Below, in pieces: positions 19,092 through 56,206 of a stretch of DNA of 64,000 nt. Position 1 is the first letter of the stretch, and the number at the start of each line of letters is the position of its first letter. The translations under genes and the position numbers were made by a program. Origin of the DNA: Dehalococcoidia bacterium (GTDB taxonomy: Bacteria > Chloroflexota > Dehalococcoidia > SZUA-161 > SpSt-899). The notes under the pieces were generated by a model, which saw nothing but the letters and a program-made list of their open reading frames with translations, ran no database searches and was not told where the DNA came from. The DNA lies in contig JBGLNL010000001.1 in NCBI GenBank assembly GCA_041300025.1, positions 1,598,005 to 1,662,004 on the forward strand, in the 5' to 3' direction.

Positions 19092-20897
19092 GATAGCTTC
19101 CACTTTTACCGGAATCCCGTCCAGCATAACCATCCCGGCAAAGGGTTCAAGCTTGGTCCAATCATCATCGGTGATCAGATTAACGTTCACTCCGCGCTTT
19201 TCCACAGCCATCTGGGGCACGTTCTGAACCGTCCGGCCCCAGCCGTGGGGAATCCAGATAACCCCTTTCATCAGCTCATCGGTTACCTTCGCCGATATTT
19301 CTATGGAGCCGACTTTGCTGGAAACCCGCACCGTTTGACCGTCTGTAATATCCAGTTCACCGGCATCCTGTGGATTCACATAGCAGTAATTTGTCTCGCC
19401 CCGGACGTGAATCCAGCTATTGATAGTTTCCACTTTCCGGCCGCTGATAAGCGAAAGGGGATATTCGTCGTTCTGCGGAACCTTATATTCCCGCAGCTTT
19501 TCCAGTTCCGGTAGATATTCATCGGGAAGAAGGCAGATACGCCTGTCGGGCAGGTTGATTGCATCGGGAATCAGGACGTCATGACGGCCTTCTTTCAGGA
19601 ATATGCCTCGCTTTGAGAGGTGCATTTCTTCGAACTTTGCCTGATCCTCGCCGGGGAACAGCATTTTGAGAACCTCGAACGGATTTTTACCCAGAGTGGG
19701 AATGCCCATTTTTTCACTCAGCAGGTTGAATATCTCCCATTCGTCTTTGACCTCTCCTTCGGGCTCGACCACCGCCGGTGAGTAGTGAACGAACCCCATC
19801 GGATTGAAGGCCGCCATAAAGTGTGAATACTCTTCTCTCTCTAAAAAAGTGGTAGCCGGCAGAATGTAATCCGCCAGCGTGCCGGTATCGTTCATGAATA
19901 CGTCGATGGAGACCAGAAGGTCAAGATTCTTCAGTGCCTTTTCCAGTTTTCCTGCGTTGGGAAGGCTGATGAGCGGGTCGCCGGACATAACCAGCATGGC
20001 GCGAATCTGGCCTTCTCCCGGCGTGAGAATCTCATCTGCCAGCGTAGCTGCGGGCATGCAGCTTACAACCGCCGGAAAGTTGCCAATCCGGCTGCGCCTG
20101 GGTTCGTCCTGTTCGGTCAGATCGTTGAGCCGGGCAATATTATAGAATCCGGCTGAATATCGGTTTCCCCGCTTATCAATATTGCCGGTGATGAAATTGA
20201 GCGTATCTACGGCCCATGCTTTTAACGTGGCAAAAGGCCCGCGGTCCGTCCCCACACGGCCGTAAACGGATGCTCCGCCTCTGGCTGAAGCGGCGAGGAA
20301 ATCCTCGGTCATTTTGATTATTTCCTCTTTTGCGATACCGGTAACGCCAGCTATTTTATCGAGATCCTTTCCAAACCCTGCGGCTACTCGACGCAATTTA
20401 TCAAAACCGGTGGAGTATTTCTCGATAAATTCCCTGTCTTCCCGGTGATTTTTCAGGATGTAATGGATCATCCCCATCAGGAGATAGATATCGCTGTTCG
20501 GCCGGATGAAATGGTGTTCCCCAATTGCTTTGGCCGCCTCCGTCTTTCTGGGATTAATCCAGACAATTTTGCATCCGCGAGCCTGCATTTCTTTCAGTTT
20601 CTCCAGTGGATGCGCGCAGTTGACAAAGGTGAAGTGTGAAGCCAGTGGATTGCTTCCCATCACCAGAAAATAGTCGATTGTATCGAGGGCCGGAAAGATA
20701 ATGGTAAACGAGGAACCGTAGAATCTTTTTGAATGGGCAAACTTATTAGAGCAATCCTGAGTGCCGGGCCCGTACGAGTTCCGGGTTCCGATGAAATTCA
20801 TGAAGGCACCGGAATACAAAACTGCTGAATAGGAATAGGCCAGCACGTTACCCATGTAAGCGCCGATGGAATCGGGCCCGTGTTTTGTTTTTATTTC
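19089..20897 (-). CDS. molybdopterin (bis-MGD) oxidoreductase catalytic subunit, 5'-truncated
   Basis: KHGPDSIGAYMGN..., VMGSNPLASH, KIVWINPRKTEAA and the C-terminal beta-barrel domain DGQTVRVSSKVGSIEISAKVTDELMKGVIWIPHGWG are present. The N-terminal 4Fe-4S domain is missing. Homology ends at about 20897, where the obg fragment begins. Confidence 0.75.
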   Translation of the reverse strand, partial: EIKTKHGPDSIGAYMGNVLAYSYSAVLYSGAFMNFIGTRNSYGPGTQDCSNKFAHSKRFYGSSFTIIFPALDTIDYFLVMGSNPLASHFTFVNCAHPLEKLKEMQARGCKIVWINPRKTEAAKAIGEHHFIRPNSDIYLLMGMIHYILKNHREDREFIEKYSTGFDKLRRVAAGFGKDLDKIAGVTGIAKEEIIKMTEDFLAASARGGASVYGRVGTDRGPFATLKAWAVDTLNFITGNIDKRGNRYSAGFYNIARLNDLTEQDEPRRSRIGNFPAVVSCMPAATLADEILTPGEGQIRAMLVMSGDPLISLPNAGKLEKALKNLDLLVSIDVFMNDTGTLADYILPATTFLEREEYSHFMAAFNPMGFVHYSPAVVEPEGEVKDEWEIFNLLSEKMGIPTLGKNPFEVLKMLFPGEDQAKFEEMHLSKRGIFLKEGRHDVLIPDAINLPDRRICLLPDEYLPELEKLREYKVPQNDEYPLSLISGRKVETINSWIHVRGETNYCYVNPQDAGELDITDGQTVRVSSKVGSIEISAKVTDELMKGVIWIPHGWGRTVQNVPQMAVEKRGVNVNLITDDDWTKLEPFAGMVMLDGIPVKVEAI

Positions 20898-21506
20898 GAG
20901 AAAAGAGAACTGGTTCTAGACCTGAAGTTGCTGGCTGACGTGGGATTGCTGGGACGGCCGAATGTTGGTAAATCGACCCTTATTAACAACGTTTCTGCCG
21001 CTAAGTCAAAAGTCGATAGCTATCCGTTTACCACATTGGAGCCAAAGCTGGGGGTGGTAGAGATGGGATATGAGTCATTCGTCATTGCGGATATTCCGGG
21101 ACTAATAGAAGGGGCTCATGCCGGGCACGGACTGGGACATAATTTCCTGAGACATATAGAGCGCACCCGGGTTTTAATTCATATTATCGATGGAACCACA
21201 CAGAACCCTCTGGCGGACTTTGAGGAAATAAATCGGGAACTCTTTCTTTTTAACTCTCTGCTCAAGGAGAAGCCCCAGATTGTGGCGGTGAACAAGATTG
21301 ATATTTCTTCGGTTCGGGAAAGCGTGCGGGAATTGGAGACAAACCTTGCCGGGATTGGGGTTCCGGTGTACTTTATTTCTGCGGCAACCGGGGAGGGTGT
21401 GCCCGACCTTATGAATAAGACCCTGGAAATTTTGAGTAAAGTCAATCCCCCTCCAATGGAAGAGAAAAAGGAATTCAGGGTATTTCGGCCAAAGCCCATC
21501 AACTAA
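20898..21506 (+). CDS. obg: GTPase Obg, GTPase domain only (N-terminal Obg fold missing)
   Basis: EKRELVLDLKLLADVGLLGRPNVGKSTLINNVSAAKSKVDSYPFTTLEPKLGVV...IADIPGLIEGAHAGHGLGHNFLRHIERT. Confidence 0.85.
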   Translation, partial: EKRELVLDLKLLADVGLLGRPNVGKSTLINNVSAAKSKVDSYPFTTLEPKLGVVEMGYESFVIADIPGLIEGAHAGHGLGHNFLRHIERTRVLIHIIDGTTQNPLADFEEINRELFLFNSLLKEKPQIVAVNKIDISSVRESVRELETNLAGIGVPVYFISAATGEGVPDLMNKTLEILSKVNPPPMEEKKEFRVFRPKPIN

Positions 21507-21515
21507 GGTAATTGC

Positions 21516-22118
21516 GTGAGGATAGGACTTCTCGGGGGCACTTTCGATCCGATCCACCTGGGACATCTCGCTATAGCCGAGGATGTGAGGATGAAACTCG
21601 GGCTGGATCGGGTGGTATTTATTCCCGCCGGAAATCCGTGGTTTAAGTCGAATCAGGAGATATCTGCAGGAGAGCATCGGCTGGAGATGGTGAAACTGGC
21701 TATAGCCCCCAATCCGCACTTTGAGGTCTCCGGGCTGGAAATGGAGCGGCCGGGGCCTTCTTACACCGTCGATACCGTCAAAGCTTTAAAAGAAGAATCT
21801 GGCGCTGAGGACGAGTTATACTTTATCGCTGGCGCGGATGCTGTCATGGATATACCTCACTGGAAGAAACCGGAGGAGCTTGTGGCTCTGTGCCGGATCG
21901 TCGGTGTGAACAGGCCGGGTGCCCCAGCGATCGACGTAGAGGCGCTGAAATCCCGGCTGCCGGCGATTTCAAATTCCCTGATAGTAGTTGATGTGCCACA
22001 GGTCGATATCGGTTCTACAGCGGTCAGAGCGATGGTCAGGAGCGGTCGATCCATCAAGGGCGTGGTGCCGGCGGCGGTAGAACGTTATATCATTGAGCAC
22101 AAGTTATATCTATCCTGA
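21516..22118 (+). CDS. nadD: nicotinate-nucleotide adenylyltransferase
   Basis: MRIGLLGGTFDPIHLGHLAIAE...; 200 aa. Confidence 0.9.
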   Translation: MRIGLLGGTFDPIHLGHLAIAEDVRMKLGLDRVVFIPAGNPWFKSNQEISAGEHRLEMVKLAIAPNPHFEVSGLEMERPGPSYTVDTVKALKEESGAEDELYFIAGADAVMDIPHWKKPEELVALCRIVGVNRPGAPAIDVEALKSRLPAISNSLIVVDVPQVDIGSTAVRAMVRSGRSIKGVVPAAVERYIIEHKLYLS

Positions 22119-22135
22119 ATACGCAGGAGGGACAA

Positions 22136-22699
22136 TTGGGATTTTTAGAAGAGATTGAGCGGTTAAAGGAACTGGTTATAGAAAAATCATTCCGGTATGG
22201 ATATTTCACCCTGTCTTCAGGGCAGGAAAGCCTGTATTACTTCGATGGGCGGCTCACAACCCTTTCTCCAGAGGGGGCGTTTCTTGTAGGAAGGAGGGTT
22301 TTCTCATTAGTGCGGGAAGCTGGTGTCGATGCGGTCGGTGGGCCTACTCTGGGTGCAGACCCCATTGTCGCGGCGGTGGCGCTGATCAGCTATCAGGAAG
22401 GACACCCCGTTCCTGCTTTCATCGTAAGAAAGGAACCCAAAAAGCACGGCACTCAGCGGCACATTGAAGGGGATTTCCCTGAAGGAGGGACGGTGGCCAT
22501 TGTGGATGACGTGATAACCTCCGGCGGATCGATTCTGCGGGCTATAGAGGTGGTGGAAGCGGCGGGGGGGCGAGTTGGCAAGGTAATCGCCCTGTTGGAT
22601 CGCCAGCAGGGCGGCTCCGATGAACTACGCAGTCGTGGTTACAGCTTCATTTCCCTTTTTATTGCTGATGAAAAAGGGAATGTGAGCATAAGTTTGTAA
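22136..22699 (+). CDS. pyrE: orotate phosphoribosyltransferase
   Basis: FTLSSGQESLYYFD and the PRPP loop VAIVDDVITSGGSI. Confidence 0.9.
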   Translation: MGFLEEIERLKELVIEKSFRYGYFTLSSGQESLYYFDGRLTTLSPEGAFLVGRRVFSLVREAGVDAVGGPTLGADPIVAAVALISYQEGHPVPAFIVRKEPKKHGTQRHIEGDFPEGGTVAIVDDVITSGGSILRAIEVVEAAGGRVGKVIALLDRQQGGSDELRSRGYSFISLFIADEKGNVSISL

Positions 22700-23911
22700 T
22701 CAGCTTGCGATCACCGTGGGCCCTTCGCCGAAAGGCTCGTCGGGAACTAGGGATTCCTCCGGCTTATCAATCAGAGCAATTGAAGCCACGCTATCGCCTT
22801 TGTTGAGCCTTATTGTCCTTACCCCCTGAGTGCTGCGCCCGAACTTGGATATCCCTTTCAGCAGGGTCCGTATAATGGTTCCGTTTTTGGTGGTTACCAT
22901 TAACTGCTGGTTCAGGTCTACCACCGCAGCGTCTTTTACCGGGCCGGTTTTTTCGTTTACAAGGTGGGCCCGTATCCCACTACCGCCGCGGATTTGCTGG
23001 CGGTATTCGTCTACAGGAGTGCGTTTCCCGTACCCGTTCTGGGTGACTGTCAGCACGAATGCGTTGGGGCGAATAATATCCATGGCTACCGCCCGGTCAT
23101 CGCCGATTAGCCGGATGCCGCGAACCCCTCCGCTGGTTCGTGAGGCGGTGCGCAGTTTGTCAACTGAAAATCTGATGGACTGCCCTTTACGTGTGACGAT
23201 AATAGCATCATTTTCCTGGGTTGCAGCCTTTACCGAGATCAGGCTATCGCCCTTTTCAACATTCATCGCTATGATCCCGGTACTTCGGATAGCGGAGAAC
23301 CGTTTGAGTTCGGATTTTTTAACCTCCCCTTTTTCGGTGGCCATGACAATGAAACCATCCTCCGGGAAATTAGAGGCCGACATTATAGCGGTGATATGCT
23401 CATTGTTTTCTATGGGAATCAGATTTATTATGGGCAATCCTTTGGCCTGGCGGGTGCTTTCCTGGGGCAACTGATAGCATTTGAGGCGGAAGACCCGACC
23501 TCTGGTGGTGAAGAAAAGCAGGGTATCGTGGGTATCGGTGATGAGCAGATGGCGCACATCATCGGTTTCCTGCACCTTCATCCCGCTGACCCCCTTGCCT
23601 CCCCTGTGCTGGGTCCGGTATGTATGGCTGGGCAACCGTTTGACATATCCGCGGTCGCTCACGGTAACCACTACCTGCTGATGGGCTATCAGTTCCTCGT
23701 CGGTGAAACCCCCTATCTCCTCGTCATTTAACTCTGTACGGCGCTCATCACCATACTTTTCACTGATTCTGAGCATTTCTTCCTTGATGAGATAATCGAT
23801 TTTTCGGGGATTGGCGAGCAGGTCTTCCAGATAAGCGATGGTCTGTAAAAGTTCGGCGTATTCGTCGTCGATTTTCTGCCTTTCCATTGCTGCCAGCCGG
23901 CGCAGTTGCAT
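22700..23911 (-). CDS. gyrA: DNA gyrase subunit A, 3' part (end of the coiled-coil/tower region plus the C-terminal beta-pinwheel domain)
   Basis: [61 protein letters not shown], then repeated GyrA-CTD blades ([78 protein letters not shown]). It is part of track ORF 22700..24775. Confidence 0.9.
23813..23911 (-). repeat. 99-bp segment identical (reverse complement) to 53158-53256
   Basis: Base-by-base comparison by eye finds a 99/99 match. It encodes [33 protein letters not shown] in both copies. Confidence 0.9.
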
Positions 23912-24775
23912 AGCCCCATGCAATACTCCATCGCTTCCGAGCATCAATGTAGCGCAGTGCTCTTGCCCATCGAGCCCTCTCCCTGCCGCTTCAACCCCGA
24001 CGAGTTTGACCTTCTCATCTTCGAGGAAGGCATGGAAAATTCCTATGGCATTGCTTCCGCCACCGACGCAGGCCACAATGTAATCGGGAAGCCGGTTATA
24101 TTTTGAAAGTATCTGCTCCCTGGTCTCCCTGCCGATGATCGATTGCAAATCTCTCACCATCATCGGATACGGGTGCGGGCCCACGACCGATCCGATCAAA
24201 TAATGGGTGGTGCGCACGTTGGTTACCCAGTCGCGAATGGCCTCGTTGATGGCGTCCTTCAGTGTGCGGCTCCCTGAAAGCACCGGCCGGACCTCGGCTC
24301 CCAGTATTTTCATGCGGAAGACGTTGGAAGATTGTCGATGAATATCCTCTTCCCCCATGTAGACGATGCATTCGAGCCCGAGCAGGGCGCAAATGGTGGC
24401 TGTAGCCACGCCATGCTGACCGGCTCCGGTTTCGGCAATGATGCGCTTCTTGCCCATGCGCCGGGCCAGTAGCCCTTGTCCGAGAGCGTTGTTTATCTTG
24501 TGAGCGCCGGTGTGGGCCAGATCCTCCCGTTTAAGCAGGATTTTAGCCCCGCCCATTTTTTGTGAGAGCCTTTTGGCGTAATAAAGCGGTGTGGGTCTGC
24601 CCACATATTCACGGCATAGATCGTTGAATTCATCCCAGAAGCCATGGTCCTTGCGGGCTTCCTCATATGCCTGATTGAGTTCTTTTAAGGCCGGCATCAG
24701 TGTTTCCGGGACGAATTTTCCACCCCAGATACCAAAGTGCCCTCTTTCATCTGGTAGTTTTGTTTTCAAATTCAT
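23912..24775 (-). CDS. trpB: tryptophan synthase beta chain, 5' 288 codons only, fused in frame to the gyrA 3' part
   Basis: [55 protein letters not shown], ends ...GSDGVLHGA. About the C-terminal 100 residues are missing. Confidence 0.9.
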
Positions 24776-24851
24776 TTTCCTGGTGCCTCTCTCAAGATTT
24801 GAGGGTTGTGTTTATCTGGATCGTATTTCATTTTGGCATGCTGGCATGGGT

Positions 24852-25457
24852 TCAAAATTCTGAGCACTTACATTTGAGGATGAAATCCTGCATTTTCCGA
24901 TGGTCTTTCTTCCCCGGTTCCCGCTCGACCCCGCTGGCAACGTCCACAGCGTAAGGTTGCGCTATCCTGATGGCCTCGGAAACATTATCCGGTGTCAGGC
25001 CTCCTGCCAGTATCACCCGCCCGTAATCCCTCAGTTTTCTGGCGATTGGCCACAGTTTTTCCGGCGGGGTATCAGAGCCTTTTTGTTTATCTATCATGAA
25101 GGCTGCCACCTGATAGCGCTGGGCCTCCTCAAATGACGTCAGGGTTTCTGGCGTGAAGGTCTTAATGACTTTAGGAAATAGTTCGGCACAAAATTCTGGC
25201 CCCTCATCGTGATGAAGCTGGGCTATGTCAAGTCCACAGTTTGCCATGATCGATTTTATTTCCGGAAGAGGATGCCCCATGAAAACGCCTACTTTGGTCA
25301 CGAATGGCGGCAGTTCGGTTATGATTAGGTTAGCCGTCTCTGGGGTCACCTGCCGGGCACTATGGGCAAAGATGAATCCCAGCGCGTCTGCGCCGAACTC
25401 CACAGCGGCCAGCGCATCTTCCAGATTGGTTATTCCGCAAATCTTTACCTTTATCAT
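24852..25457 (-). CDS. trpF: phosphoribosylanthranilate isomerase
   Basis: MIKVKICGITNLEDALAAVEFGADALGFIF; 201 aa; located between trpC and trpB. Confidence 0.85.
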   Translation of the reverse strand: MIKVKICGITNLEDALAAVEFGADALGFIFAHSARQVTPETANLIITELPPFVTKVGVFMGHPLPEIKSIMANCGLDIAQLHHDEGPEFCAELFPKVIKTFTPETLTSFEEAQRYQVAAFMIDKQKGSDTPPEKLWPIARKLRDYGRVILAGGLTPDNVSEAIRIAQPYAVDVASGVEREPGKKDHRKMQDFILKCKCSEF

Positions 25458-25573
25458 GATAATATCTCAACCGCCGAGTTCGCAAAGGACGCAGAGCAAG
25501 CTGGTTTTGGCTGCCTATCCAACCATCGACTACTTATTCCTCGGCGAACTCCGTGTTCTCTACGGTGAGCAAT

Positions 25574-26344
25574 TTATCCGAGTAACTCCTTGATCTTTGC
25601 TGCCGGATCAGGGCTTTTGACCAGCACCTCTCCCACCAGTATGGCGTTCACTCCGGCTGTCTCAAGTTTTTCGACATCTTCCCTGGATATAATACCGCTT
25701 TCGCTGACCAAAATCTTATTTATCGGGATAAAGGGACGCAATTCAAGCGTTGTCTGTAAGCTGACGCTGAAATCTGCCAGATTGCGATTATTGATGCCGA
25801 TGATCTTCGGGTCAAGTTCCAGGATTTGCTCCAGTTCCTCTCGATTATGTACCTCGATCAGTGCAGTCATGGCCAGTTCGTTTACCAGCCGATAGAGCCG
25901 GGTCAACTCTTTAATTGGGAGGGCAGCAGCGATCAGCAGCACGATGTCGGCCCCGATGGCTCTGGCTTCCCATATCTGATACGGGTCGACGATGAAATCC
26001 TTGCGCAGGATCGGCACTTTAACAGCTTGCCGGACAGCTTCGAGATCGCCTGTACTTCCCTTGAAGTATTCCGTTTCGGTCAGCACGGATATGGCTGAGG
26101 CCCCGCCCTTTTCGTATGTTCTTGCCAGAGCTACTGGATCAAGGTCAGGAGCCAGCAATCCTCTGGAAGGGGAAGCACGTTTGATTTCAGCGATCAGGTT
26201 GATCCCCGGTTTGCTCAGGACCGCAGTAGCATCTTTGGGGGATTGCTGGCTCAGGCATATGGATTTCAACTCATCCAGTGGACGTTTTGCCTTTCGAGCC
26301 TTCAATTGCTTGCGGGTGGTGTCGATAATTTCGTCCAGAATCAT
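25574..26344 (-). CDS. trpC: indole-3-glycerol phosphate synthase
   Basis: LIAEIKRASPSRG, SVLTETEYFKGS, ILRKDFIVDPYQI, GINNRNL. Confidence 0.9.
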   Translation of the reverse strand: MILDEIIDTTRKQLKARKAKRPLDELKSICLSQQSPKDATAVLSKPGINLIAEIKRASPSRGLLAPDLDPVALARTYEKGGASAISVLTETEYFKGSTGDLEAVRQAVKVPILRKDFIVDPYQIWEARAIGADIVLLIAAALPIKELTRLYRLVNELAMTALIEVHNREELEQILELDPKIIGINNRNLADFSVSLQTTLELRPFIPINKILVSESGIISREDVEKLETAGVNAILVGEVLVKSPDPAAKIKELLG

Positions 26345-26871
26345 TTTTGCTGTGTCTCTTCCCCGGTTGTCTTTCGCTCTGCCAGAGTACGGTATCCGAT
26401 ATAGATAAGGATGACCAGTCCCAGCGCCACTCCTATGAACCGTGCGGTGTTATTCAGATCGGGTTGGGAGATGGCATAGATTATGATCCCCAGACCGCCG
26501 ATCGTCATCCCCGGTTTGAGGATATCCAGCCGCAGCTTGAGTTCCAGTCCCAGTATTATGCAAAGAAGGCCGATGGGATAGGCGATGAAGAAAATTGTCT
26601 GATGATGGTCTACCATGTTATCATTGTGGGTTTCCCATGCCTGCTGATTCAGTTCGTTCCATTCCTTCCATTTGGCTTCGCTTGCTTCCTGCTCGGCCTT
26701 CAATTGCGCATAATCCTCGCTTTCGGCCGGTGGTTCGATATCAGGGTAGGGTCTGATCAGATATTCTGGTGGCTGACCGATATCGGAAAGTTCCGGAGGC
26801 TCGTAGAAGGCGTCAATGCCGAAGGAAACTGACATGATCAGAAAGGCTGCTATGATCAGAGCATAGACCAC
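26341..26871 (-). CDS. hypothetical membrane protein
   Basis: 176-aa ORF with a GTG start, an N-terminal TM, an acidic/coiled middle and three C-terminal TM stretches. Its stop overlaps the trpC start by 4 nt. Confidence 0.4.
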   Translation of the reverse strand: MVYALIIAAFLIMSVSFGIDAFYEPPELSDIGQPPEYLIRPYPDIEPPAESEDYAQLKAEQEASEAKWKEWNELNQQAWETHNDNMVDHHQTIFFIAYPIGLLCIILGLELKLRLDILKPGMTIGGLGIIIYAISQPDLNNTARFIGVALGLVILIYIGYRTLAERKTTGEETQQK

Positions 26872-26967
26872 CTTGATTGCGTTGGTAATGCTGTTTTTCC
26901 GTGGACATTCACATTGAATATAACCGTGGAATAGGGCTTGATAACAGACATCAAGCTGATGCAGTAA

Positions 26968-28104: not shown

Positions 28105-28119
28105 TGTTGAATCCTCCCG

Positions 28120-29547: not shown

Positions 29548-29715
29548 CAGCGCGCCTGTGCCGGGTCTCTTGCTACATTAACATTCGTGCCATAATGCTT
29601 TCCCACATTCTCCAGAGATAGAAACAGTGCCCTAATTATATACTTTTCGCATGCCAGTAAGTCAATGACCAATTGCCAGCAAGATGATCCGACTATAATA
29701 CGTCAGCATCTCAAG

Positions 29716-29818
29716 AAACGAGTGAATAAGTGGTGAATCCGGGGGGAATTGTGATTATCCCCCCAGCCTCAACTATTCTCAGAGGCTGGGGGGATACGGT
29801 TGGCTAATCAGAGGTTCC
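29716..29818 (-). repeat. MITE-like element, copy D (full length, diverged core, one degenerate end)
   Basis: The reverse complement reads GGAACCTCTGATTAGCC...tatcccccc...ggggggat...ccccccggattcaccacttattca. One end is an intact TCAGAGGTTCC (29808-29818). Confidence 0.7.
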
Positions 29819-29843
29819 CTCTGTATATATTACAAACGCTTAA

Positions 29844-30185
29844 ATGACTTTCCCATACCTTATAATCGCGGCAGCAACCCAATTTCTATTCAAGACGGGC
29901 AATACCGCGTTTATCGTAACCAACAAAAGCAACGGCGCAACCCGCGCCACCGTTAGGCCAGAAGACGTTTTGATATCCCTTGAACCCGTTCACTCAAGTG
30001 CCCGAAACACTTTCGCTGGGAAAATTACTCGCATTAATGATAAAGGTTCAACTCTCTATATAACCGTGGACCTGCCGCCGGAGATTTCAGCACTCATCAC
30101 CCGGAACTCCTTCAGAGAGATGGGGTTAACAGCAGGTATGCAGGTCTACGTTACTTTCAAGGCATCGTCGATGCATGTTTTCTAG
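29844..30185 (+). pseudogene. TOBE-domain C-terminal fragment of a molybdate/tungstate ABC ATPase (ModC/WtpC-like)
   Basis: VRPEDVLISLEPVHSSARNTFAGKITRINDKGSTLYITVDLPPEISALITRNSFREMGLTAGMQVYVTFKASSMHV. There is no ATPase domain upstream, only MITE copy D. Confidence 0.6.
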
Positions 30186-30222
30186 CATGCAAGAAAAATT
30201 TCTTAAGGAGGCTATATTGTCA

Positions 30223-32163: not shown

Positions 32164-32203
32164 TCGTATTGAGAATGCTGTATAGAGCAATGGAAAATCG
32201 AAA

Positions 32204-36318: not shown

Positions 36319-37500
<1,182 letters not shown>

Positions 37501-38358
37501 TTAAATCCAGAAATTAATACACATAGCCAGGAAGATCACTCCCAGATAGGGGAAGGAAGATATTTTGTAAAGCCGCCACGAGTCCTTCGATTCCATATTT
37601 CGCACCAGCCGTAAGCCGGCCAGTAACATAATATCTCCGGTAACATTGGCGATGGCGAAAAAGAACCAGCCGAAGCCGGCCACATGCCACAGGAGCAGGG
37701 ATACAGCATACAATACGATCGAGAGGAAAAAGAGGAGCTTTATGGAGCGGGGGTTTTGCATCGTAAGGGGGAAAAAGGCGATGTTCGCTTTGATGTACTC
37801 CTCGCGCCGGGCGATCATCACGCTCCAGACATGCAGCGGAATCCAGGCTGCAATTAGCAGGCACATGAACAGGATGGTCCAGTCAATATCCGTTGTAATG
37901 GCCAGATATCCGATCAGGACCGGCGCACATCCGGCGATCATTCCCTGGAAAACGCACATTGCCCGCTTGCGGTAGACCACCGAAGCGATCGTGCCGGCAA
38001 GCCCGGAAACGAAACACAGCGGATGGAGAAACCAGGCAAGGATCAGCGCAATTACCACCAGTCCGATAGCCAGTGGGAGCATTTTTTCCGGGGGGTAGAT
38101 TCGCCGGGTGGGAAGCGCTCTTCCGCAGGTTCGCAGCATCTGCACATCGACATTACGGTCGAGATAGTTTGTAAGTCCGTTGCATCCCGCGCTGCCCAGC
38201 AAAACAGCTACGAACACCCCGGCTAATGGCCAGCCAGCCGGCGAGCCCTCCGCTGCAATGACTGCGGCACAGAGTCCGATGTAAGTCAGCAGCGCAGTCT
38301 CACGAGGTTTGAGAACATCGAAATAATTCCAGAGGGCCCTCATGGCAGTTTCCCGCAT
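37501..38358 (-). CDS. UbiA-family prenyltransferase (heme o synthase-like)
   Basis: 285 aa and about 8-9 TM; N-terminus YFDVLKPRETALL and NYLDRNVD (Asp-rich motif). Confidence 0.7.
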   Translation of the reverse strand: MRETAMRALWNYFDVLKPRETALLTYIGLCAAVIAAEGSPAGWPLAGVFVAVLLGSAGCNGLTNYLDRNVDVQMLRTCGRALPTRRIYPPEKMLPLAIGLVVIALILAWFLHPLCFVSGLAGTIASVVYRKRAMCVFQGMIAGCAPVLIGYLAITTDIDWTILFMCLLIAAWIPLHVWSVMIARREEYIKANIAFFPLTMQNPRSIKLLFFLSIVLYAVSLLLWHVAGFGWFFFAIANVTGDIMLLAGLRLVRNMESKDSWRLYKISSFPYLGVIFLAMCINFWI

Positions 38359-43996: not shown

Positions 43997-44572
43997 ATGA
44001 AAGTGCTCGGAATAGCAGGCAGTCCACGCCGCGGAGGGAATACAGATATCCTGTTAGAACAGGCAATGGAGGGGGCGAAGAGCGCCGGTGCTGATATCCA
44101 GACCATCGTTATTTGCGATCTCAATATTGCCCCATGCCGGCACTGCGATGGATGCCTGAAAACCGGCAGGTGTGTTATTGATGATGATATGCAGTCAGTA
44201 TATCCGAAGCTCAGAGAGGCTGATCGGCTGATTCTTGCTTCCCCGATGTTTTTTATGGGAATCACGGCCCAGGCTAAGGCGATGATCGATCGATGCCAGG
44301 CGCTCTGGGCACTCAAATATGAGCTGAAGCAACCGGTTGCCTTGAATACTGCCGGAGAGCGCAAAGGGCTGTTCATTTCGGTCGGGGGGACTGGTTTTAC
44401 CAGTCAGTTCGAAGCCTCGCGGCCGGTTATCAAAAGCTGGCTTACGACTATAGATGCGTTTCTGGTTGACGAATTGCATTATTCAAAGGTTGATGAAAAA
44501 GGGGCGATCAGGCATCATGCTACAGCCCTGCAGGATGCCTTTGAAGCGGGGAAAAGGCTTGTTGAAGATTAG
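43997..44572 (+). CDS. NADPH-dependent FMN reductase / iron-sulfur flavoprotein family
   Basis: MKVLGIAGSPRRGGNTD, Cys cluster CRHCDGCLKTGRC, ASPMFFMGITAQAK. Confidence 0.75.
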   Translation: MKVLGIAGSPRRGGNTDILLEQAMEGAKSAGADIQTIVICDLNIAPCRHCDGCLKTGRCVIDDDMQSVYPKLREADRLILASPMFFMGITAQAKAMIDRCQALWALKYELKQPVALNTAGERKGLFISVGGTGFTSQFEASRPVIKSWLTTIDAFLVDELHYSKVDEKGAIRHHATALQDAFEAGKRLVED

Positions 44573-47490
44573 TGCGTGGAATAAAAGCGGATCTCTAAGG
44601 GTGAAATTCCAGGCGGCCGGTCAGGAACTGTTTAAAGAGACCGCCGGCGATATCTCTTTTGCCCTGCACAATTTAGAATTAGAGAAAGAGCGGGCGCAGG
44701 CGGAAGATAAAATCAAGGCTCAAAACGAAGCAATACAAGTACAATTATACGAAATCGAGCAGGCCAACATTGAGCTCAAACAAGCCCAGAAAAAACTCCT
44801 CAATAGCAACCAGATTATCCGTGAGAGCGAAGAGAAATACCGTAATCTGATCGAAAACGCCGGTGTCCCCATCATATATTTTGCCCGTAACGGCCGCATC
44901 CTGACCATCAATGCCATTGCTGCCAAAAATCTCAAGGGGGAGCCCAGTAACTATATTGGTAAATCAATATATGACCTTTTCCCCAAAGTGGCGGATGGCA
45001 TCATGGAAAGACTAAGGGAAGTGATCAGAACAGAGTCCATCAAAGAATATGAAGATTTCTTTGAACTACCCATCGGCAAGTTCTGGTTCTTAACAGATAT
45101 GTACCCCGTTAAAGACTCCAGCGGCAAAACCTTTGCCGTTCAGGTTATTGCCCGGGATATTACCGAACAAAAGCGGGCAAGAGAGGCCCTTAGCCTGGCT
45201 GAGGAAAAACTGCGCCTTATATTTGATAGCATCAAAGATGGTATCACCATCAGCGATCTGGAGGGGAATATTATCGATTCGAACCAGGAAGGGCTCAGGA
45301 GACACGGATTCAAAAGTATAGATGAACTGAAGGGAATGAAAGGATTTGATTTCATTTCCGAAAGGGATCGGGAAAAGGCCGTCAAGGATATGGAAAATGC
45401 CCTCTCCGATGAGAGTTCCGCCCATTTGGTTGAGTACAATTTGAAAGGCCCGGATGGAGGCGAAATACCGGTGGAGGCAACCGCGGCTCTACTGCGTGAT
45501 AGTTCGGGTAATCCAATCGCTTTCATCAATGTTACCAGGGATATCACCGAACGCAGGAAAGCAGAGGAAGCAGTCAGAAAAAGCGAGGAACGCTTTCACG
45601 CTTTGCTCGATAAATCCTCAGATGGAATTGCCGTCATTAATGCGGACGGGACATTTAGCTATGAAGGCCCCGTCAATGATCGCATATTGGGTTATACGGC
45701 AGATGATACAGTTCTAACCTCAATATTTGATACGATCCATCCGGATGACCAGTCCAGTCTAAGCGAAGATTTTGCCCGCCTGATCAAAAAATCGGGTGAC
45801 ACCATTACCGGCACTTATCGGGCCCGTCATAAAGACGGCTCCTGGCGCACGATCGAGGCTGTCGCCAGAAATCTTATGGATGATCCTATCGTCAAAGGAA
45901 TTGTTGTGAACTTCCGCGATGTTACTGAGAGACAGCAGGCTGAGGAAGCTGTTAAGGCCAGCGAGCAAAAATTCAGAGAGATATTTAATAACGTAAATGA
46001 TGAAATCATGTACATCGACAGTGCCGGTAACGTTATCAACGTAAACAGGAGGGTCGAGGATATTTTTGGCTACGAGCCTCAGGAGGTCATCGGAAGGAAT
46101 TTTGCAGAGTTCGGGTCTGTTTTTGGTGAGGATATAGAAAGAATCGCCAAAATGTTTTCTGAGGTCATCGCATCGGGAGAAACCAGACTCATTGAACTAA
46201 AGGGAAAGCGCAAAGACGGAAGTACCGTTTATGTGGAAGTAAGCCCAAGTATTATCAAAAACAACTCGGATATCGAGGGAATGCTGATCGTCGTGCGCGA
46301 TATTACCGAACGCAAGCAGGCTGAAGAACTTTTTGCCACTCTGGCCACCAATTCCCAGATAGGAAGCTACATCATTCAGGACGGGGTTTTCCGTTTCGCA
46401 AACCCGGTATTTCTGCGCGATCTCGGTCTTACCGAAGAAGATTTAATTGGGAAAACCCCTATTGATATCGTCCATCCTGATGATAGAGAGCGAGTCCGGC
46501 AGGAAGCAATAAAAATGCTCAAAGGTGAGAATAAATTTGGTTATGAATTCAAAGCCATCGACAGACACGGCAATGTCAGACACGCGTATGAGAAGGTAAC
46601 CAGCATCGAATATCAGGGGAAAAGGGCGGTACTGGGAAGTTATATGGATATCACGGAGAAAAAAAGGACGGAAGAAAAACTCGATCAATATCGAGTTGAA
46701 CTGGAACAGCGCCTGGGCGAATTGCAAGAAGCATATGAGAAACTCCAGGGAATGGACAAGCTCAAAGACAAATTTCTTTCCACAGTCTCGCACGAGTTGC
46801 GGACTCCGCTGACTTCGATAAAGAGCTTCACAGAGATTCTCCTTACCTACGATAACGACCGGGAAACCCAAAAGGAATTTCTCAATACCATTAATGACGA
46901 AAGCGACAGACTCACCCGTCTGATCAACGATTTTCTGGATATTTCCAAGATTGAATCCGGGCGACTGCAATGGGAAAACACACTGGTAAAAGTTCTCGAT
47001 ATTATTAAATCAGCAGTTGAATCAGCCGAACCCGTAGCTGCCAAGACAAAACTTACCGTCACCATAGAATCGGAACTTGATTTGCCGCTTGTGTTGGTAG
47101 ACAGGGACAGGCTCACTCAGGTCATAACCAATCTACTCGATAATGCCATTAAATTCACCCCTGAAGAGGGCCGTATCACCATAAAATCAGAACTAATGAA
47201 AAGCCGTAAATCCCCGACTGAACCAGATATGATCAAGGTTAGCATCATTGATACGGGAATAGGCATTGCCCCCGAAGATCAGGGCCGCGTTTTTGAGAAG
47301 TTCGCTCAAATAAACAGCGGCCTGGTGGCCAAGCCGAAGGGAACCGGGCTGGGGTTAACAATTTCCAGAGAAATCGTGGAGCATTTCGGCGGGACAATCT
47401 GGGTAGAAAGCGAATTGGGTAAAGGCAGCACCTTCGCCTTTACAATACCGGTGCCGGAAAAATCAGAGGCAAACACAATAATAACAAAAA
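44558..47490 (+). CDS. cytoplasmic multi-PAS sensor histidine kinase (start uncertain, possibly 5'-truncated; no own stop)
   Basis: Five PAS modules, each ending in a DITE(R/Q/K)K-type boundary. H-box LSTVSHELRTPLTSI; HATPase_c DNAIKFT...GTGLGLTISREIVEHFGGTIWVESELGKGSTFAFTIP. The track ORF 44454..48230 continues into a deacetylase domain. Confidence 0.8.
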
Positions 47491-48230
47491 AAACCAGCAT
47501 ATACGAACTCTGCCGGGCGATGAAGACCCGGGAGGTGCTGACGTTTCGGGATTACGTCACCCGGCAGGATTTGCCCGAGAAATACGTTATCTTAAGGCAC
47601 GATGTAGATAGAAAGCCGGGCAATGCCCTGCGGATGGCGAAGCTGGAACATGAACTGGGTATTCAAAGCACCTATTACTTCAGGATGAAGCCGCATACCT
47701 TCAAACCGGATATCATCCGACAGATTGCAGATATGGGGCACGAGATCGGGTACCATTACGAGACGCTGGATAAAGCCAAAGGCGACCCAAAACGAGCCAT
47801 AGACATATTTGATGCAGAACTTGGCGAGTTCAGGACAGTGTGCACGGTGGACACCATATGCGCCCACGGCAATCCGCTTACCAAATGGAACAACGAATCA
47901 ATCTGGGATCAATACAGTTATTCGGTTTATGGGATTAGTGGCGAGGCTTTTTCGGTTCAAGACAATAAGATTTGTTATTTCACTGATACCGGTAGGACTT
48001 GGAATTGGAAATATCGTAGAAAAGATATCGTATCGAATGCGCTCGGAGATGATGCTGAAGTAGTGGGCACTGACGATTTGATCGATTTTATTAGTAGAGG
48101 AAATACAGATATAATTTACATTGGAGCCCATCCGGAGCGGTGGAATGACGGAATATTTGGATGGAGCGCTCGACTGCTGGAAGATAAAGCAATGAATATT
48201 GGCAAACGGCTGGTATTTGCATTTCGATAG
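47491..48230 (+). CDS. polysaccharide deacetylase-like (CE4-related) domain, lacking its own start codon
   Basis: LTFRDYVTRQDLPEKYVILRHDVDRKPGNALRMAKLEHELGIQSTYYFR...GHEIGYHYE. It normally occurs as a stand-alone protein in glycan clusters. Here it is in frame with the kinase. Confidence 0.6.
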
Positions 48231-50382: not shown

Positions 50383-50483
50383 GCTTGTGATCAACCCCCT
50401 GTATCCCCCAATCATGGGGGAAAATTGAAGCTGGGGGACGCCCCCAGACCCCCGAAGTCACCACTTAATCAGAGGTTTCTTAG
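50383..50483 (+). repeat. MITE-like element, copy B (near full length; left end degenerate)
   Basis: Differs from copy A at roughly 7 positions over about 93 nt by eye. The right end TCAGAGGTTTCTTAG contains the nfi stop codon on the other strand. Confidence 0.8.
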
Positions 50484-51148
50484 ATACTCTTCCCTCCGGC
50501 AACCTGATGGGCCAGCCGTGTCGGTTCCGGAAGGCGGTATCCTCTCCCGCAATTTAATACCCATTTAACAGCCGATTCCAGGCTTATCATGTTCCCGATG
50601 GAAATATAAAGCGGCTTCACATTTGTTCGGGTTCGCAGCACAACCCCTATGGTTTCACTGCCATCCACAAGCTCAACCCGATCCCCCCGCTCGGGCCCAA
50701 CCTTGCCATGTTCACCGCACAAACGCGATTTGGCACAGCCGATGGTCCGCACATCCAGCAATAACCCCAGATGCGAAGCCAGCCCAAATCTTCTGGGATG
50801 AGCGATTCCCTGCCCGTCCACCATAATCAAATCGGGGATGCTGGTGAGTTTTTCAAAGGCATCAAGGATGACGGGGGCTTCTCGGAAGGAAAGTAGACCC
50901 GGGATGTAAGGTAGTTCTATGGGGCGTTCTGCTAACCGGCTTTCCACCGATTTAAGGCCGGGATATTCGAGCACCACTATTGCTGCACGAACGATATTCC
51001 GGGATCGAGGCACCGAAACATCCACCCCTGCCACCAGCGTCACTCCCTCTATCTCACCTTCTCGCACTACCCTTCCGGCCAATTCCTGCTGAATTGAAAT
51101 AGCCTCAGAGGCGGGTATCTGCCACTCATGCAAATGCCGCGCTTTCAC
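50480..51148 (-). CDS. nfi: endonuclease V (deoxyinosine 3' endonuclease)
   Basis: VAGVDVS, PGLLSFREAP, MVDGQGIAHPRRFGLASHLG, IGCAKSRL. Confidence 0.85.
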   Translation of the reverse strand: MKARHLHEWQIPASEAISIQQELAGRVVREGEIEGVTLVAGVDVSVPRSRNIVRAAIVVLEYPGLKSVESRLAERPIELPYIPGLLSFREAPVILDAFEKLTSIPDLIMVDGQGIAHPRRFGLASHLGLLLDVRTIGCAKSRLCGEHGKVGPERGDRVELVDGSETIGVVLRTRTNVKPLYISIGNMISLESAVKWVLNCGRGYRLPEPTRLAHQVAGGKSI

Positions 51149-51158
51149 AAACTTGGAA

Positions 51159-51698
51159 TCAATCCTGGAAATATTCCTTCACCACATCGAATTCATCGGG
51201 CAATAGACCAATAATGACAGGGAACATAGCTACCTGGAAAGTGGCCAATGCCGATCCGTCCACGGTGTTTTCCACCGATTCACTACTTATAATGCCCCCG
51301 GGCAGATAATCTTCCCCCAGAGCCCCGTATTTGGCTACCATCGCCATAATAAAGGAACAAATCAGCCAAACAGTTATGAAAACGAGGGCTGCCCCGGCGA
51401 GCTTTTCAACCATACCAAGAAAAACCATTTTAAGCATTTTCTGCAAAACGAAAGCCAAAAAATACATAACAGCAAATACAGCTATGAATATAGCTAGAAA
51501 AGCCACAATGTGAGCCCAGGCCTCGCTATCGATGCTGTCATCAAGCAAGTCCGCCAGGTACCCGTGCAATGCGCAAGCCAGGATAACTCCAAACAATGCC
51601 CCGACTAACGGCAGCACCATCTTAACCAGACCGATTTTGTACCCCACGAAAGTGGGGATCACCAGAGCAAGGATAATGACAATATCAAGCCAGTTCAT
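51159..51698 (-). CDS. CvpA family membrane protein
   Basis: MNWLDIVIILALVIPTFVGYKIGLVKM, 4 TM. The ATG at 51698 is preferred over the track start at 51734. Confidence 0.65.
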   Translation of the reverse strand: MNWLDIVIILALVIPTFVGYKIGLVKMVLPLVGALFGVILACALHGYLADLLDDSIDSEAWAHIVAFLAIFIAVFAVMYFLAFVLQKMLKMVFLGMVEKLAGAALVFITVWLICSFIMAMVAKYGALGEDYLPGGIISSESVENTVDGSALATFQVAMFPVIIGLLPDEFDVVKEYFQD

Positions 51699-51888
51699 AG
51701 CCGCCTTCCCGACAATATCAAGCCACAAAAACAATCCTGAAATTATGAATAATCGGGCTTCATATTACAAGACGTATTTGCTTCTCCTTTTGTTCTCTCA
51801 AATCCCTGAGGCTGACATGCCTTTCCCTTGACCTTTCCTTCCGTATTGGATACACTCCACTTAGAAGTCGCTGAAAGTGGGGAAATAA

Positions 51889-53262
51889 ATGGAAATCGGA
51901 ACAGTCAAGCAAGTTACCCTTGAAGATGAAGTAAGAAGCGCATATCTTGATTACGCCATGAGCGTGATCGTCTCCCGGGCTCTGCCCGATGCCCGTGACG
52001 GGATGAAGCCCGTACAAAGGCGAATTCTCTACGGGATGAACGATCTCGGCGTCGCCTATAATACCCCCTTCAAGAAGAGCGCGCGTATTGTTGGTGAGGT
52101 CATGGGTAAATATCACCCTCATGGCGATTCAGCCATATACGATGCCATGGTACGTATGGCACAGGATTTCTCCATGCGCTACCCCCTTGTCGACGGCCAG
52201 GGGAACTTCGGGAGCATGGATAACGATCCTCCCGCAGCTATGCGTTACACCGAGGCCCGTATTTCCCGGATCGCCGGAGAAATGCTGGCTGATATCGAAA
52301 AGGAAACCGTCAACTTTTCCCCCAACTTCGATGACTCGCTTCAGGAACCGACTGTCCTCCCCACCCAGATACCCAACCTACTGCTCAACGGAGCAGCAGG
52401 GATTGCGGTAGGCATGGCAACGAACATTCCGCCGCACAACCTTAGAGAGCTGGCCGAAGCTATCGCCTTTCTGATCGACAACCCGGAGGTCTCCACTGAG
52501 GAACTGATTCCCCTGGTACCGGGGCCGGATTTCCCCACAGGCGGTACTATCCTCGGCCGGGAAGGAATTTATCATGCCTATACTACCGGACGGGGAAAGA
52601 TTGTTCTGCGGGCCAAAAGCCATACGGAAGAGATCGGGAAAGGACGATGCCAGATAGTGGTTACCGAGCTTACCTACCAGACAAACAAATCAGCGCTGGT
52701 GGCCAAAATAGCCGAACTGGTGAAGGACAAAAGAATCGACGGAATCAGCGAGATCCGCGACGAGTCCGATCGAAAAGGAATCCGGATCGTAATCGAACTG
52801 AGAAAGGATAGCCACCCTGATCACATATTGAATAACCTCTATAAAAACACCGTTATGCAAACCGCATTCCATGTCAATATGCTGGCGCTGGTGGACGGCC
52901 AGCCGAGGGTGCTTAACCTTAAATCGGCCCTTCGCCAATACATCAATTTCCGCCACGAGGTCATTACCCGCCGTTCCAAATTTGATTTGCGTAAGGCCCA
53001 GGAACGCTCTCATATACTGGAAGGACTAAAAATCGCTCTCGACAGGATAGATGAGATAATTACCACTATCAGGGAATCAGAGAGTACCGAAGCAGCCAGG
53101 AATGCCCTGATGGAGAATTTCTCCCTCTCTCAATTGCAGGCCCAGGCAATTCTGGAAATGCAACTGCGCCGGCTGGCAGCAATGGAAAGGCAGAAAATCG
53201 ACGACGAATACGCCGAACTTTTACAGACCATCGCTTATCTGGAAGACCTGCTCGCCGGTTGA
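51889..53262 (+). CDS. gyrA: DNA gyrase subunit A, 5' part (456 codons of gyrA, then G-stop)
   Basis: [71 protein letters not shown] (active-site region). It ends ...YLEDLLAG-stop immediately after the 99-bp repeat. Confidence 0.9.
53158..53256 (+). repeat. 99-bp segment identical (reverse complement) to 23813-23911
   Basis: 99/99 identity by eye. It is the last 33 gyrA codons of the 5' fragment and the first 33 gyrA codons of the 3' fragment. Confidence 0.9.
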
Positions 53263-53316
53263 AAAATAGTTTTCATAATAGCCTTTCAATAGGGAAATGG
53301 GAAACATACCACTTAG

Positions 53317-53473
53317 CAGGCTGTCCGAAAACTCCTATGTATGTCATTCTGAACATAGTGAAGAATCTTTTTTGAAGCTGAGCCTCGGAGATTCTTCGTC
53401 ATAAATTCCTCAGAATGACACGTGTTTTGATATTTTCGGACAGCCTGTTGGATTCCGGCTCGGAGGCCGGAAT
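53317..53473. repeat. long nested inverted-repeat (hairpin) element plus an adjacent short hairpin
   Basis: Perfect arm pairs: caggctgtccgaaaa (53317-31) with ttttcggacagcctg (53433-47); tgtcattctga (53342-52) with tcagaatgaca (53410-20); gaagaatct (53360-68) with agattcttc (53389-97). Then ttccggc-tcggag-gccggaa (53453-72). Confidence 0.7.
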
Positions 53474-53507
53474 GGCATATCATATTTAGTTGCCGATTTA
53501 ATAACTT

Positions 53508-53553
53508 CCCATATGATTGGGGGATCACAGAGGGTTGAGCAGAGGCTCCTTAG
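53508..53553 (-). repeat. partial (left-end) copy of the MITE-like element, copy H
   Basis: The reverse complement CTAAGGAGCCTCTGCTCAACCCTCTGTGATCCCCCAATCATATGGG aligns with the copy A left end TAAGGAACCTCTGATCAACCCCCTGTATCCCCCAATCATGGGGG. Confidence 0.65.
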
Positions 53554-53589
53554 TTGACGGGTTAATAATTTGAAGAGGGCGCCAGCCAT

Positions 53590-54495
53590 ATGAAAAAAAC
53601 GATATGGATTTTAGTTCTTACGGTACTGTTGCTCATGGTGGCTTTCGGCGTAACTTGTGATGATGAGGGCAGTCAATCTGATGCAGGCGGGAAAATTGGC
53701 GTAGTGGTAACTCTCCTTCCCCAAGCCGAGTTCGTGGAGAAGGTCGGCGGGGACAATGTTGAATTAACCGTAATGGTGCCGCCGGGGGCGAGTCCGCATA
53801 CGTATGAACCGACTCCCGGTCAGATGGTGGCTCTTTCCAGGGCGGATATGTACGCGAAAGTAGGTTCCGGGGTTGAATTTGAGAACGTATGGATGGGAAA
53901 AATAATTAAGCAGAATGAGGATATGCTTGTGGTTGATTGCTCGGAAGGTGTCACATTGCTTGAAATGGGTGCGCCGGATGAACATGATGAGGCTGATCAC
54001 GATCATGGGGGAAATGACCCGCATATCTGGATGTCCCCTGAAAATGCCATGATAATGGTGGAAAATATCTGTGCCGGCTTAGTTCAGATCGATCCCGAAA
54101 ACCGGCTTTATTATGAATCAAATAGGGATGCCTATCTTGCAGAACTTGCGCAACTTGATCAGGAGATCGAAAAAGGGCTTGAGGATGTGACCAACCGGAT
54201 TTTCATGGTATATCATCCTGCTTTCGGATATCTTGCCCATCGTTATGATTTGACCATGCTCACGATTGAAGAAGAAGGCAAAGAACCGACCGCATCGGGG
54301 CTGGCTCACCTCATGGATCAGGCGGAAGTATATGATATCAAAGTAATTTTCGCCGGACCCCAGTTCGATCCAAAGAGCGCCGAGACGATCGCGGATGATA
54401 TCGGCGGCCGGGTGGTAATGATCGATTCGCTGGCACGCGATTATATTTTGAATTTGCAGAAGATCAAAGAAACGTTGATCGAAGCAATGGAATAA
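53590..54495 (+). CDS. metal (Zn/Mn) ABC transporter substrate-binding protein, TroA/ZnuA family
   Basis: Signal peptide, PPGASPHTYEPTP, His/Asp-rich loop DEHDEADHDHGGNDPHIW, VYHPAFGYL. Confidence 0.85.
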   Translation: MKKTIWILVLTVLLLMVAFGVTCDDEGSQSDAGGKIGVVVTLLPQAEFVEKVGGDNVELTVMVPPGASPHTYEPTPGQMVALSRADMYAKVGSGVEFENVWMGKIIKQNEDMLVVDCSEGVTLLEMGAPDEHDEADHDHGGNDPHIWMSPENAMIMVENICAGLVQIDPENRLYYESNRDAYLAELAQLDQEIEKGLEDVTNRIFMVYHPAFGYLAHRYDLTMLTIEEEGKEPTASGLAHLMDQAEVYDIKVIFAGPQFDPKSAETIADDIGGRVVMIDSLARDYILNLQKIKETLIEAME

Positions 54496-54558
54496 CAAAG
54501 ATGCCCTGAGTCATTTCTGTTGCCAGTTTGGGCGAATATCTATACAATGAACGCATAT

Positions 54559-55326
54559 ATGTCAGAGACAAAACAAAAACCAATCGTGGAATTCAAGGAT
54601 GTGTGGGTCCAGTATAATGGCCTTACCATACTGCAGGGTATCAATATGGTTATCGAGCCGAACGATTTTCTCGGCATCATCGGGCCCAACGGTGGTGGCA
54701 AAACGACATTGCTCAAGCTGATACTTGGCCTGATTAAGCCGAGTCGCGGCAGGGTTATCGTCTTTGGGGATTCCCCGCAAAAAACAAGAAAACACATCGG
54801 CTATGTTCCCCAGCATAATCTGTTTGACCGTGATTTTCCTGTAAGTGTCTGGGAAGTTGTTATGATGGGGCGCAACGGCCGGGCAGGCCTGTTTACCCGG
54901 TACGGCAGGGACGATAAAAGTGCCGCTGAACGGGCATTGCAGATGGTCGGGATGATGGCATTCAAAGACAAGCAGATCGGGAAGCTTTCCGGAGGAGAGC
55001 AGCAGCGGGTGTTTATCGCGCGGGCACTGGTGACCGATCCTGAAATGCTGCTTCTCGATGAACCAACGGCCAGCGTGGATCCGGCGATGCAGACAGAATT
55101 CTACGAGATGCTCGATGGGTTGAAATCGCAAATGGCGATTGTGCTGGTATCCCATGACCTGAGCGCTGTCTCGGTTCATGTCGATAAAATTGCCTGCCTT
55201 AATCAGGAACTTTTCCATCATGGTTCCGGCCAGATCGAAGCCGAGGTTCTGGAGGCAGCTTATAAGTGCCCGATTCAAATGATCACCCACGGAGTGATTC
55301 CGCATCGCGTGCTGAAGGAGCATTGA
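54559..55326 (+). CDS. metal ABC transporter ATP-binding protein (ZnuC-like)
   Basis: Walker [10 protein letters not shown], signature LSGGEQQR, Walker B LLLDEP. The ATG at 54559 is preferred over the track start at 54520. Confidence 0.85.
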
Positions 55327-55330
55327 TTTT

Positions 55331-56206
55331 ATGTTCGAATGGCTCGATCATGATTTTATGCAGCGGGCGGTGATGGCCGGGCTGCTGATTTCAGTGGCCT
55401 GCGGCGTCATCGGTGTGTATGTGGTGGTGAATCGCATCGTTTTTTTGAGCGGTGGAATTTCCCACGCCGCTTTTGGCGGGATCGGGATCGGATATTATGC
55501 CGGCATCGATCCGGTGATGGGCGCTCTTTACTTCAGTCTGGCGACTGCCTTCGGGATCGGAGTTCTCTCAAAAAAAAGCCGGTTGCCGGAGGATGCGGTT
55601 ATTGGGATTGCGTGGGCGGTGGGAATGGCGCTGGGAATCCTCTTCGTCGATATGACACCCGGCTATACCGGCGATCTGATGAGCTACCTCTTCGGCAGCA
55701 TTTTGCTAATTGAAGATTCTGATCTGATTCGGATGCTGATCCTGGATGGCGTCATCCTGATCATTGTTATCGTAATGTACAAGGAGCTTCTGGCGCGTTC
55801 GTTCGATGAAGAGTTCAGTACGGTGGTCGGAACCCCTGTCAGGATATTGTATCTGCTGGTTCTGGCGATGGTGGCGTTGAGCGTCGTGCTGATGGTCAAA
55901 CTGATCGGGATCATCCTGGTAATTGCGCTGCTGACAGTGCCGGCTGTCATTGCCAAACAGTTCACCTACAATCTCAAAAAAATGATGGCGCTAGCTGTCG
56001 TTTTCTGCGCGGGGATCACTTTTTTCGGGTTGTGGCTTTCCTATGAACTGGATGTAGCTTCAGGGGCTACGATCATCCTGTTTGGCGGGGGTATACTCTG
56101 CCCCCGAAGTCACCACTTATTCAGAGGTTCCTTAATTCGGGGATTAGAAAAACTGCAGGTTTATCACCGGTTCTACAAAAAAATCCGGGCAGCAGTTACC
56201 TGTTAA
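55331..56206 (+). CDS. metal ABC transporter permease (ZnuB-like); native C-terminus obscured by a repeat
   Basis: Multi-TM ABC-3 family pattern. From about 56086 the ORF is read from MITE copy E (..[18 protein letters not shown]..). Confidence 0.8.
56086..56135 (+). repeat. partial (right-end) copy of the MITE-like element, copy E
   Basis: gggggtatactctgcccccgaagtcaccacttattcagaggttccttaa. The last 31 nt before the terminal TTAA are identical to copy A. Confidence 0.75.

Follow-up and report, generated by a model that had tools for sequence, protein, structure and literature searches.

An open reading frame of 691 amino acids at 22700..24775 on the minus strand of the window, i.e. the whole stretch of 64,000 nucleotides that was analysed, starts with 288 residues of TrpB and then continues in frame with residues 424-826 of GyrA. 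The beginning of GyrA is encoded 29 kb away on the other strand. The question raised by this locus is whether a real TrpB-GyrA fusion and a broken gyrA exist in the organism, or whether both were produced when the sequence was put together. The initial annotation held the second view, based on an exact overlap of 99 nt between the two gyrA fragments.

The 3' part of gyrA (22700..23911, minus strand) comprises codons 424-826 and the stop codon, in register with an 826-aa GyrA from a sister assembly, and these C-terminal 403 aa of the 691-aa frame contain six DNA_gyraseA_C blades according to Pfam. The 5' part (51889..53256, plus strand) comprises codons 1-456, including the AAMRYTE motif with the active-site tyrosine. 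It is read within a frame of 457 aa (51889..53262, plus strand) consisting of GyrA residues 1-456 followed by Gly-stop, and this protein covers positions 1-418 of the 432 positions of the Pfam profile DNA_topoisoIV (E = 3e-163). The translation agrees with the earlier statement that the missing N-terminus of 456 codons lies here and ends with the same 33 codons and a G-stop. In neither frame as written do the cleavage core and the C-terminal domain occur together. When 51889-53256 is joined to the reverse complement of 22700-23812, a protein of 826 aa is obtained, and it is only after this collapse of the overlap that the breakage-reunion domain with the catalytic tyrosine and the six-bladed C-terminal beta-pinwheel are found in one GyrA. 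The reconstructed protein is identical to the intact 826-aa sister GyrA (contig L087) at 821 of 826 positions, without gaps, so that the normal length predicted for the collapsed gene is borne out. A protein scan of the GTDB species representatives with GyrA returned distant relatives only (Dehalococcoidia and other Chloroflexota MAGs), at most 63% identical; this serves for a rough taxonomy but is uninformative on the join.

The overlap consists of two inverted arms, 23813-23911 (minus strand, GyrA codons 424-456) and 53158-53256 (plus strand). A repeat search and a base-by-base check both found them to be 100% complementary over 99 nt, as had been claimed. The pair is the sole long exact repeat found within the 64-kb window, and an exact match of 99 nt cannot be due to chance in 64 kb. 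String comparison places the end of identity at both edges of the 99-mer, the flanking 18 nt being unrelated. An exact scan of the GTDB species-representative genomes gave no match to the 99-mer. Both copies terminate where the alignments with sister sequences terminate, at 23911 and 53256, and similarity to the sisters is lost exactly at 23911/23912 and 53256/53257, in agreement with the proposal that both copies are contig ends.

Sister contigs were found through exact-protein look-ups of the genes flanking the junctions, and they share 98-99.6% nucleotide identity with the window. They include L085 (GCA_041299955.1, a 30-kb contig), L086 (GCA_041299985.1), L087 (GCA_041300065.1) and L088 (GCA_041300015.1). 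The look-up with the phosphoribosyltransferase led to four sister assemblies, of one species with the window, each with one intact 826-aa gyrA. A single contig in all four carries CTP_transf_like, Pribosyltran, the 826-aa GyrA (on the opposite strand), Colicin_V (cvpA) and Endonuclease_5 (nfi), and this order is the one predicted by collapsing the 99-nt overlap. From the alignment with L085, positions 8762-11777 of this contig correspond to window positions 20897-23912, and positions 11678-14546 correspond to window positions 53256-50388; the two stretches, hereafter blocks A and C, overlap on L085 by the 99 nt and one further base that matches by chance. The claim that the overlap allows two contigs to be ordered is confirmed by their adjoining on one contig. 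Judging from this collinearity, the block at 20897-23911 is followed in the real genome by the reverse complement of 50388-53256, with the 99 nt shared. L085 also puts the block at 44622-47504 about 3.9 kb past the nfi end of block C. The window lacks the intervening ~3.9 kb, where L085 has genes for a hypothetical protein, a PAP2 protein and a response regulator, along with 1.6 kb from the 5' end of the PAS kinase gene. The region of block A is probably near the replication origin, since dnaA is located ~1.7 kb upstream of it in the sister contigs.

The other portion of the chimeric frame is the 5' part of trpB (23912..24775, minus strand, codons 1-288). Over all 288 residues it is identical to the start of the TrpB (400 aa, residues 1-288) on the sister contig L001, in agreement with the 288 TrpB residues of the initial annotation. 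After residue 288 the sister protein continues with GARSYLLQD and the window with GAMQLRRL, and the TrpB of the window covers only positions 5-194 of the 295 in the Pfam profile PALP. L001 was found by the exact look-up of the trpF protein, and it carries trpC, trpF, the 400-aa trpB and then trpA. The window matches L001 over 26899-23912 only. This stretch is block B (23912..26899, 2988 nt), aligned to L001 positions 585-3572 at 98.7%. Its genes lie on the minus strand and form part of a trp operon; the first of them, upstream of the others, encodes 186 aa and is cut 2 nt into its start codon, and after it come trpC, trpF and codons 1-288 of trpB. Comparison of the sister alignments finds the 3' part of trpB and trpA absent from the window, and the copy in the window is not the complete PALP fold of ~400 aa beside trpA. 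It is cut by a contig end and is not a degenerate gene; in the organism itself, gyrA (826 aa) and trpB (400 aa) are single, ordinary genes.

Losses of similarity of the same kind recur along the window. From the ends of the sister alignments, block starts were determined to the base at 20897, 23912, 26900, 29882, 38792, 41729, 44622, 47505, 50388, 53257 and 56100. At these points, nine of them besides the gyrA junctions, the similarity of the window stops abruptly while the sister contigs run on. Block A (20897..23911, 3015 nt), of which copy 1 of the overlap is the final 99 nt, contains a 5'-truncated obg, CTP_transf_like (nadD-like), the phosphoribosyltransferase (pyrE-like) and, on the minus strand, the 3' part of gyrA. 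The block aligns in full length to L085-L089 at 99.2-99.6%, and all these alignments start at 20897 and stop at 23911 or 23912. Block B is followed by 26900-29881 (2982 nt), by three blocks within 29882-38791 (8910 nt in total, mean 2970, internal boundaries near 32850 and near 35820), and by 38792-41728 (2937 nt), 41729-44621 (2893 nt), 44622-47504 (2883 nt) and 47505-50387 (2883 nt). Block C (50388..53256, 2869 nt) starts inside a dispersed repeat of ~110 nt. Its minus strand carries nfi (endonuclease V) and cvpA, its plus strand the 5' part of gyrA, and copy 2 of the overlap makes up the final 99 nt of the block. In reversed orientation it matches L085 positions 11678-14546 at 98.1%, and it also aligns to L086-L089. 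Block D (53257..56099, 2843 nt) comprises the intergenic region downstream of fur and then znuA, znuC and znuB. It aligns to L002 positions 9668-12510 at 98.7%, and its first six bases, GGTTGA, are the Gly-stop of the truncated gyrA frame. The look-up with znuA led to L002 and L003, where znuA is preceded by fur and not by gyrA, and the similarity of the window to both begins at 53257.

The block lengths never increase from 3015 nt down to 2843 nt, and the boundary at 47505 was first forecast by this length rule and then confirmed to the base. The same rule requires further junctions, spaced by roughly 3.0-3.1 kb ahead of 20897 and by ~2.8 kb beyond 56100; examples would lie near 14850, near 17880 and at or before 58943. 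No N runs or spacers were found at the junctions in the window. This layout is that of a length-sorted contig file joined without spacers, and the suggestion that the window is stitched from contigs is supported by both the abrupt losses of similarity and the length-ordered blocks.

The boundaries near 32850 and 35820 are approximate, as the sister contigs diverge 90-180 nt before the expected block ends. They rest on the length rule, the ends of the sister alignments and an adapter remnant, because the exact-protein look-ups of cvpA with a TTG start, 36319..37485 and 37501..38358 returned no match. The remnant, identical over 19 nt to the Illumina TruSeq adapter (AGATCGGAAGAGCACACGT), occupies 35800-35818, the predicted block end. 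The ~160 nt before it (35643-35799) are AT-rich and diverge from the sister contig L095, which suggests either contaminating adapter sequence or the chimeric tail of a contig in the source assembly.

Genes at the block edges are truncated, and their Pfam profiles (obg, molybdopterin oxidoreductase, HGD-D, Asn_synthase and Phosphodiest) are partly covered. Obg lacks its N-terminal domain; the molybdopterin oxidoreductase starts at profile position 94 and the HGD-D protein at 159; Asn_synthase ends at position 146 of 354 and Phosphodiest at 248 of 342, the sister protein of the latter having 700 aa. A second chimeric frame, 44454..48230 on the plus strand (1258 aa), exceeds any single block and crosses the junctions 44621/2 and 47504/5. 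It encodes a fragment of a PAS/HisKA/HATPase_c sensor kinase, for which the sister protein has 1502 aa; its kinase domains reach to about residue 1001, and Pfam assigns nothing to the final ~230 residues.

The sequence around the reconstructed join also indicates why an assembly could break there. Aligned with five sister sequences, it separates them into two strain types, A (L085, L086 and L089) and B (L087 and L088), which are ~1-2% divergent and differ at many synonymous-looking sites. Base 53157, which precedes copy 2 and is the first base outside the 99-mer, differs between the two types, and this SNP provides a cause for a graph branch directly beside the shared k-mer. Over 23546-23849 and 52720-53157 the window itself is a mosaic: it is B-like up to 23729, A-like over 23769-23849, a stretch that takes in three SNPs inside the 99-mer, and B-like again from 53157. 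This B-A-B switch within ~400 nt points either to a third haplotype that arose by genuine recombination or to a strain-chimeric path of the assembly. Graphs also commonly break at repeats, and blocks start or end inside the dispersed ~110-nt repeat at 50388, at 56100, near 29820 and near 58945.

With these results, the locus is almost certainly an artefact of assembly and concatenation, in which contigs sorted by length were joined without spacers and blocks A and C are true neighbours linked by a k = 99 overlap. The source would be a fragmented metagenome-assembled genome of a Chloroflexota lineage near Dehalococcoidia, with closely related strains coexisting in the sample and causing graph branches beside the shared 99-mer. 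Strains that have the 99-mer in common and differ in the preceding base would give this vertex two incoming edges, and all edges would stop there. A de Bruijn assembler with k = 99 would then emit each adjacent contig with the shared vertex at its end. We account for the exact 99-nt overlap at two contig ends by such a branching vertex, kept at the end of each emitted contig. With the contigs written by decreasing length and joined without spacers, the sorting would have put the trp-operon contig (block B) beside block A. The 691-aa chimeric frame would then arise because the trpB fragment happens to match the gyrA fragment in strand and frame. Block D would have fallen beside block C in the same way and given the chance Gly-stop. 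The value of 99 is on the standard k list of MEGAHIT, was the default maximum of its early versions and is allowed in SPAdes. We infer the assembler type and the value of k from the overlap length only, as no paper on the sister assembly and run accessions was found in the literature; the concatenation step is likewise a deduction.

Overlaps between contigs of de Bruijn assemblers (SPAdes/metaSPAdes, MEGAHIT) have the properties observed here, being exact, of odd length, at both extreme ends and beside a polymorphic base. Collapsing the overlap of the window restores collinearity with the related genomes, and no difference in kind was found. The interpretation of an exact odd-length overlap at sequence ends as the mark of neighbouring de Bruijn contigs, and not of a rearrangement, was part of the initial annotation and draws support from the sister collinearity, the boundaries and the SNP at 53157. 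The chimeric frames are like those of drafts concatenated without spacers, in which unrelated truncated genes are read as one frame, and 44454..48230 is a second case. Concatenated drafts usually have N runs or a six-frame stop linker between the contigs, whereas the window has neither.

A mis-join made by a scaffolder or a binner inside the deposited record, and not by concatenation in file order, is very improbable. The lack of N spacers fits it as well, the joins being seamless whichever step made them. However, a scaffolder orders contigs by linkage and not by size, whereas eleven consecutive joins here follow non-increasing length, and the true neighbours A and C are found 29 kb apart in opposite orientation. 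Such an origin would alter who made the artefact, not that it is one.

One biological reading is that the chromosome of this strain was truly inverted or rearranged by recombination through the 99-bp inverted repeat, giving the TrpB-GyrA fusion and a truncated GyrA. The two 99-nt copies are inverted and the fusion is in frame without a stop codon, and two identical inverted copies 29 kb apart are also found in inversions mediated by inverted repeats (invertible segments, or inverted copies of IS elements and rRNA). Such an event is expected to leave reciprocal junctions with the 5' half of gyrA beside the 3' half of trpB, but the 5' half of gyrA abuts the fur-znuA spacer, and the 3' half of trpB is absent from the window together with trpA. 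The outer flanks of the two copies, the 5' part of trpB and the fur-znuA spacer, are unrelated to each other and to gyrA. Unlike in the known inversions, the similarity to relatives ends at the outer edge of each copy, there is neither a reciprocal junction nor a recombinase, and the repeat is an internal piece of a single-copy gene, in which a breakpoint would not duplicate 99 bp. The gene gyrA is essential in bacteria, yet the cleavage core and the C-terminal domain are here divided between the two fragments. Both genes are intact in the sisters at 98-99.6% identity, and similarity breaks off just as sharply at nine further points between length-sorted blocks. We regard an inversion as having hardly any chance of being correct. 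Equally slight is the probability that the junctions are real as written, with a rearranged chromosome, a TrpB-GyrA fusion and a separate N-terminal GyrA fragment overlapping it by 33 residues; ten other coincident and size-sorted breakpoints would then need a separate explanation.

The least credible reading, of next to no probability, is a naturally split gyrA with two polypeptides from distant loci and a 33-residue overlap: both halves are open reading frames and split essential genes occur in some reduced genomes, but the C-terminal half lacks its own start site and is read only as the continuation of trpB, the N-terminal half ends on a stop from an unrelated block, the overlap is identical in nucleotides and not merely in protein, four near-identical sister genomes have a single 826-aa gene, and, as with an inversion, the nine other breakpoints and the size order are left unexplained. 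Neither the TrpB-GyrA fusion nor the split gyrA is a biological feature.

For quality control, an assembly and concatenation artefact of this kind means that features spanning the junctions given above, or relying on adjacency across them, are artefacts too. Fused reading frames, operon structure, gene neighbourhood, skew profiles and long-range repeats are affected. For example, gene callers would report a false TrpB-GyrA protein of 691 aa and a false histidine kinase of 1258 aa.

Some other elements of the window were noted. The dispersed intergenic repeat of ~110 nt has a full copy at 5297-5407 and partial or diverged copies at 50388-50477, 56101-56136, 58952-59013, 29723-29818, 53505-53552 and 42630-42664, and it also occurs on the sister contigs L001, L002, L003, L085, L086 and L094. 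It has terminal inverted repeats of ~15 nt (AAGGAACCTCTGA / TCAGAGGTTCCTT) and two internal C5/G5 hairpins, with a predicted fold of -47.7 kcal/mol. The Rfam scan of the window returned no family for this repeat, and the element resembles a MITE or a REP element. A palindromic insertion of ~180 nt (GGCTGTCCGAAAA...TTTTCGGACAGCC) separates fur from znuA at ~53285-53465. L002 shares it with the window, whereas L003 lacks it. A direct repeat of 9 nt (ACAGCCTGT) borders it on both sides in L002, and the left copy of this repeat in the window differs at two bases. The insertion is a MITE-like polymorphism between strains. Paralogous genes of the HGD-D (2-hydroxyglutaryl-CoA dehydratase D-component) family were found at 26968-28104 (minus strand) and 38639-40602 (plus strand). 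Several such paralogues lie on different contigs, which suggests that dehydratases or benzoyl-CoA-reductase-like enzymes form an expanded family in this lineage of Chloroflexota. The sole RNA gene in the window, according to Rfam and ARAGORN, is a tRNA-Ser (anticodon GCT) at 57192-57283 on the minus strand.
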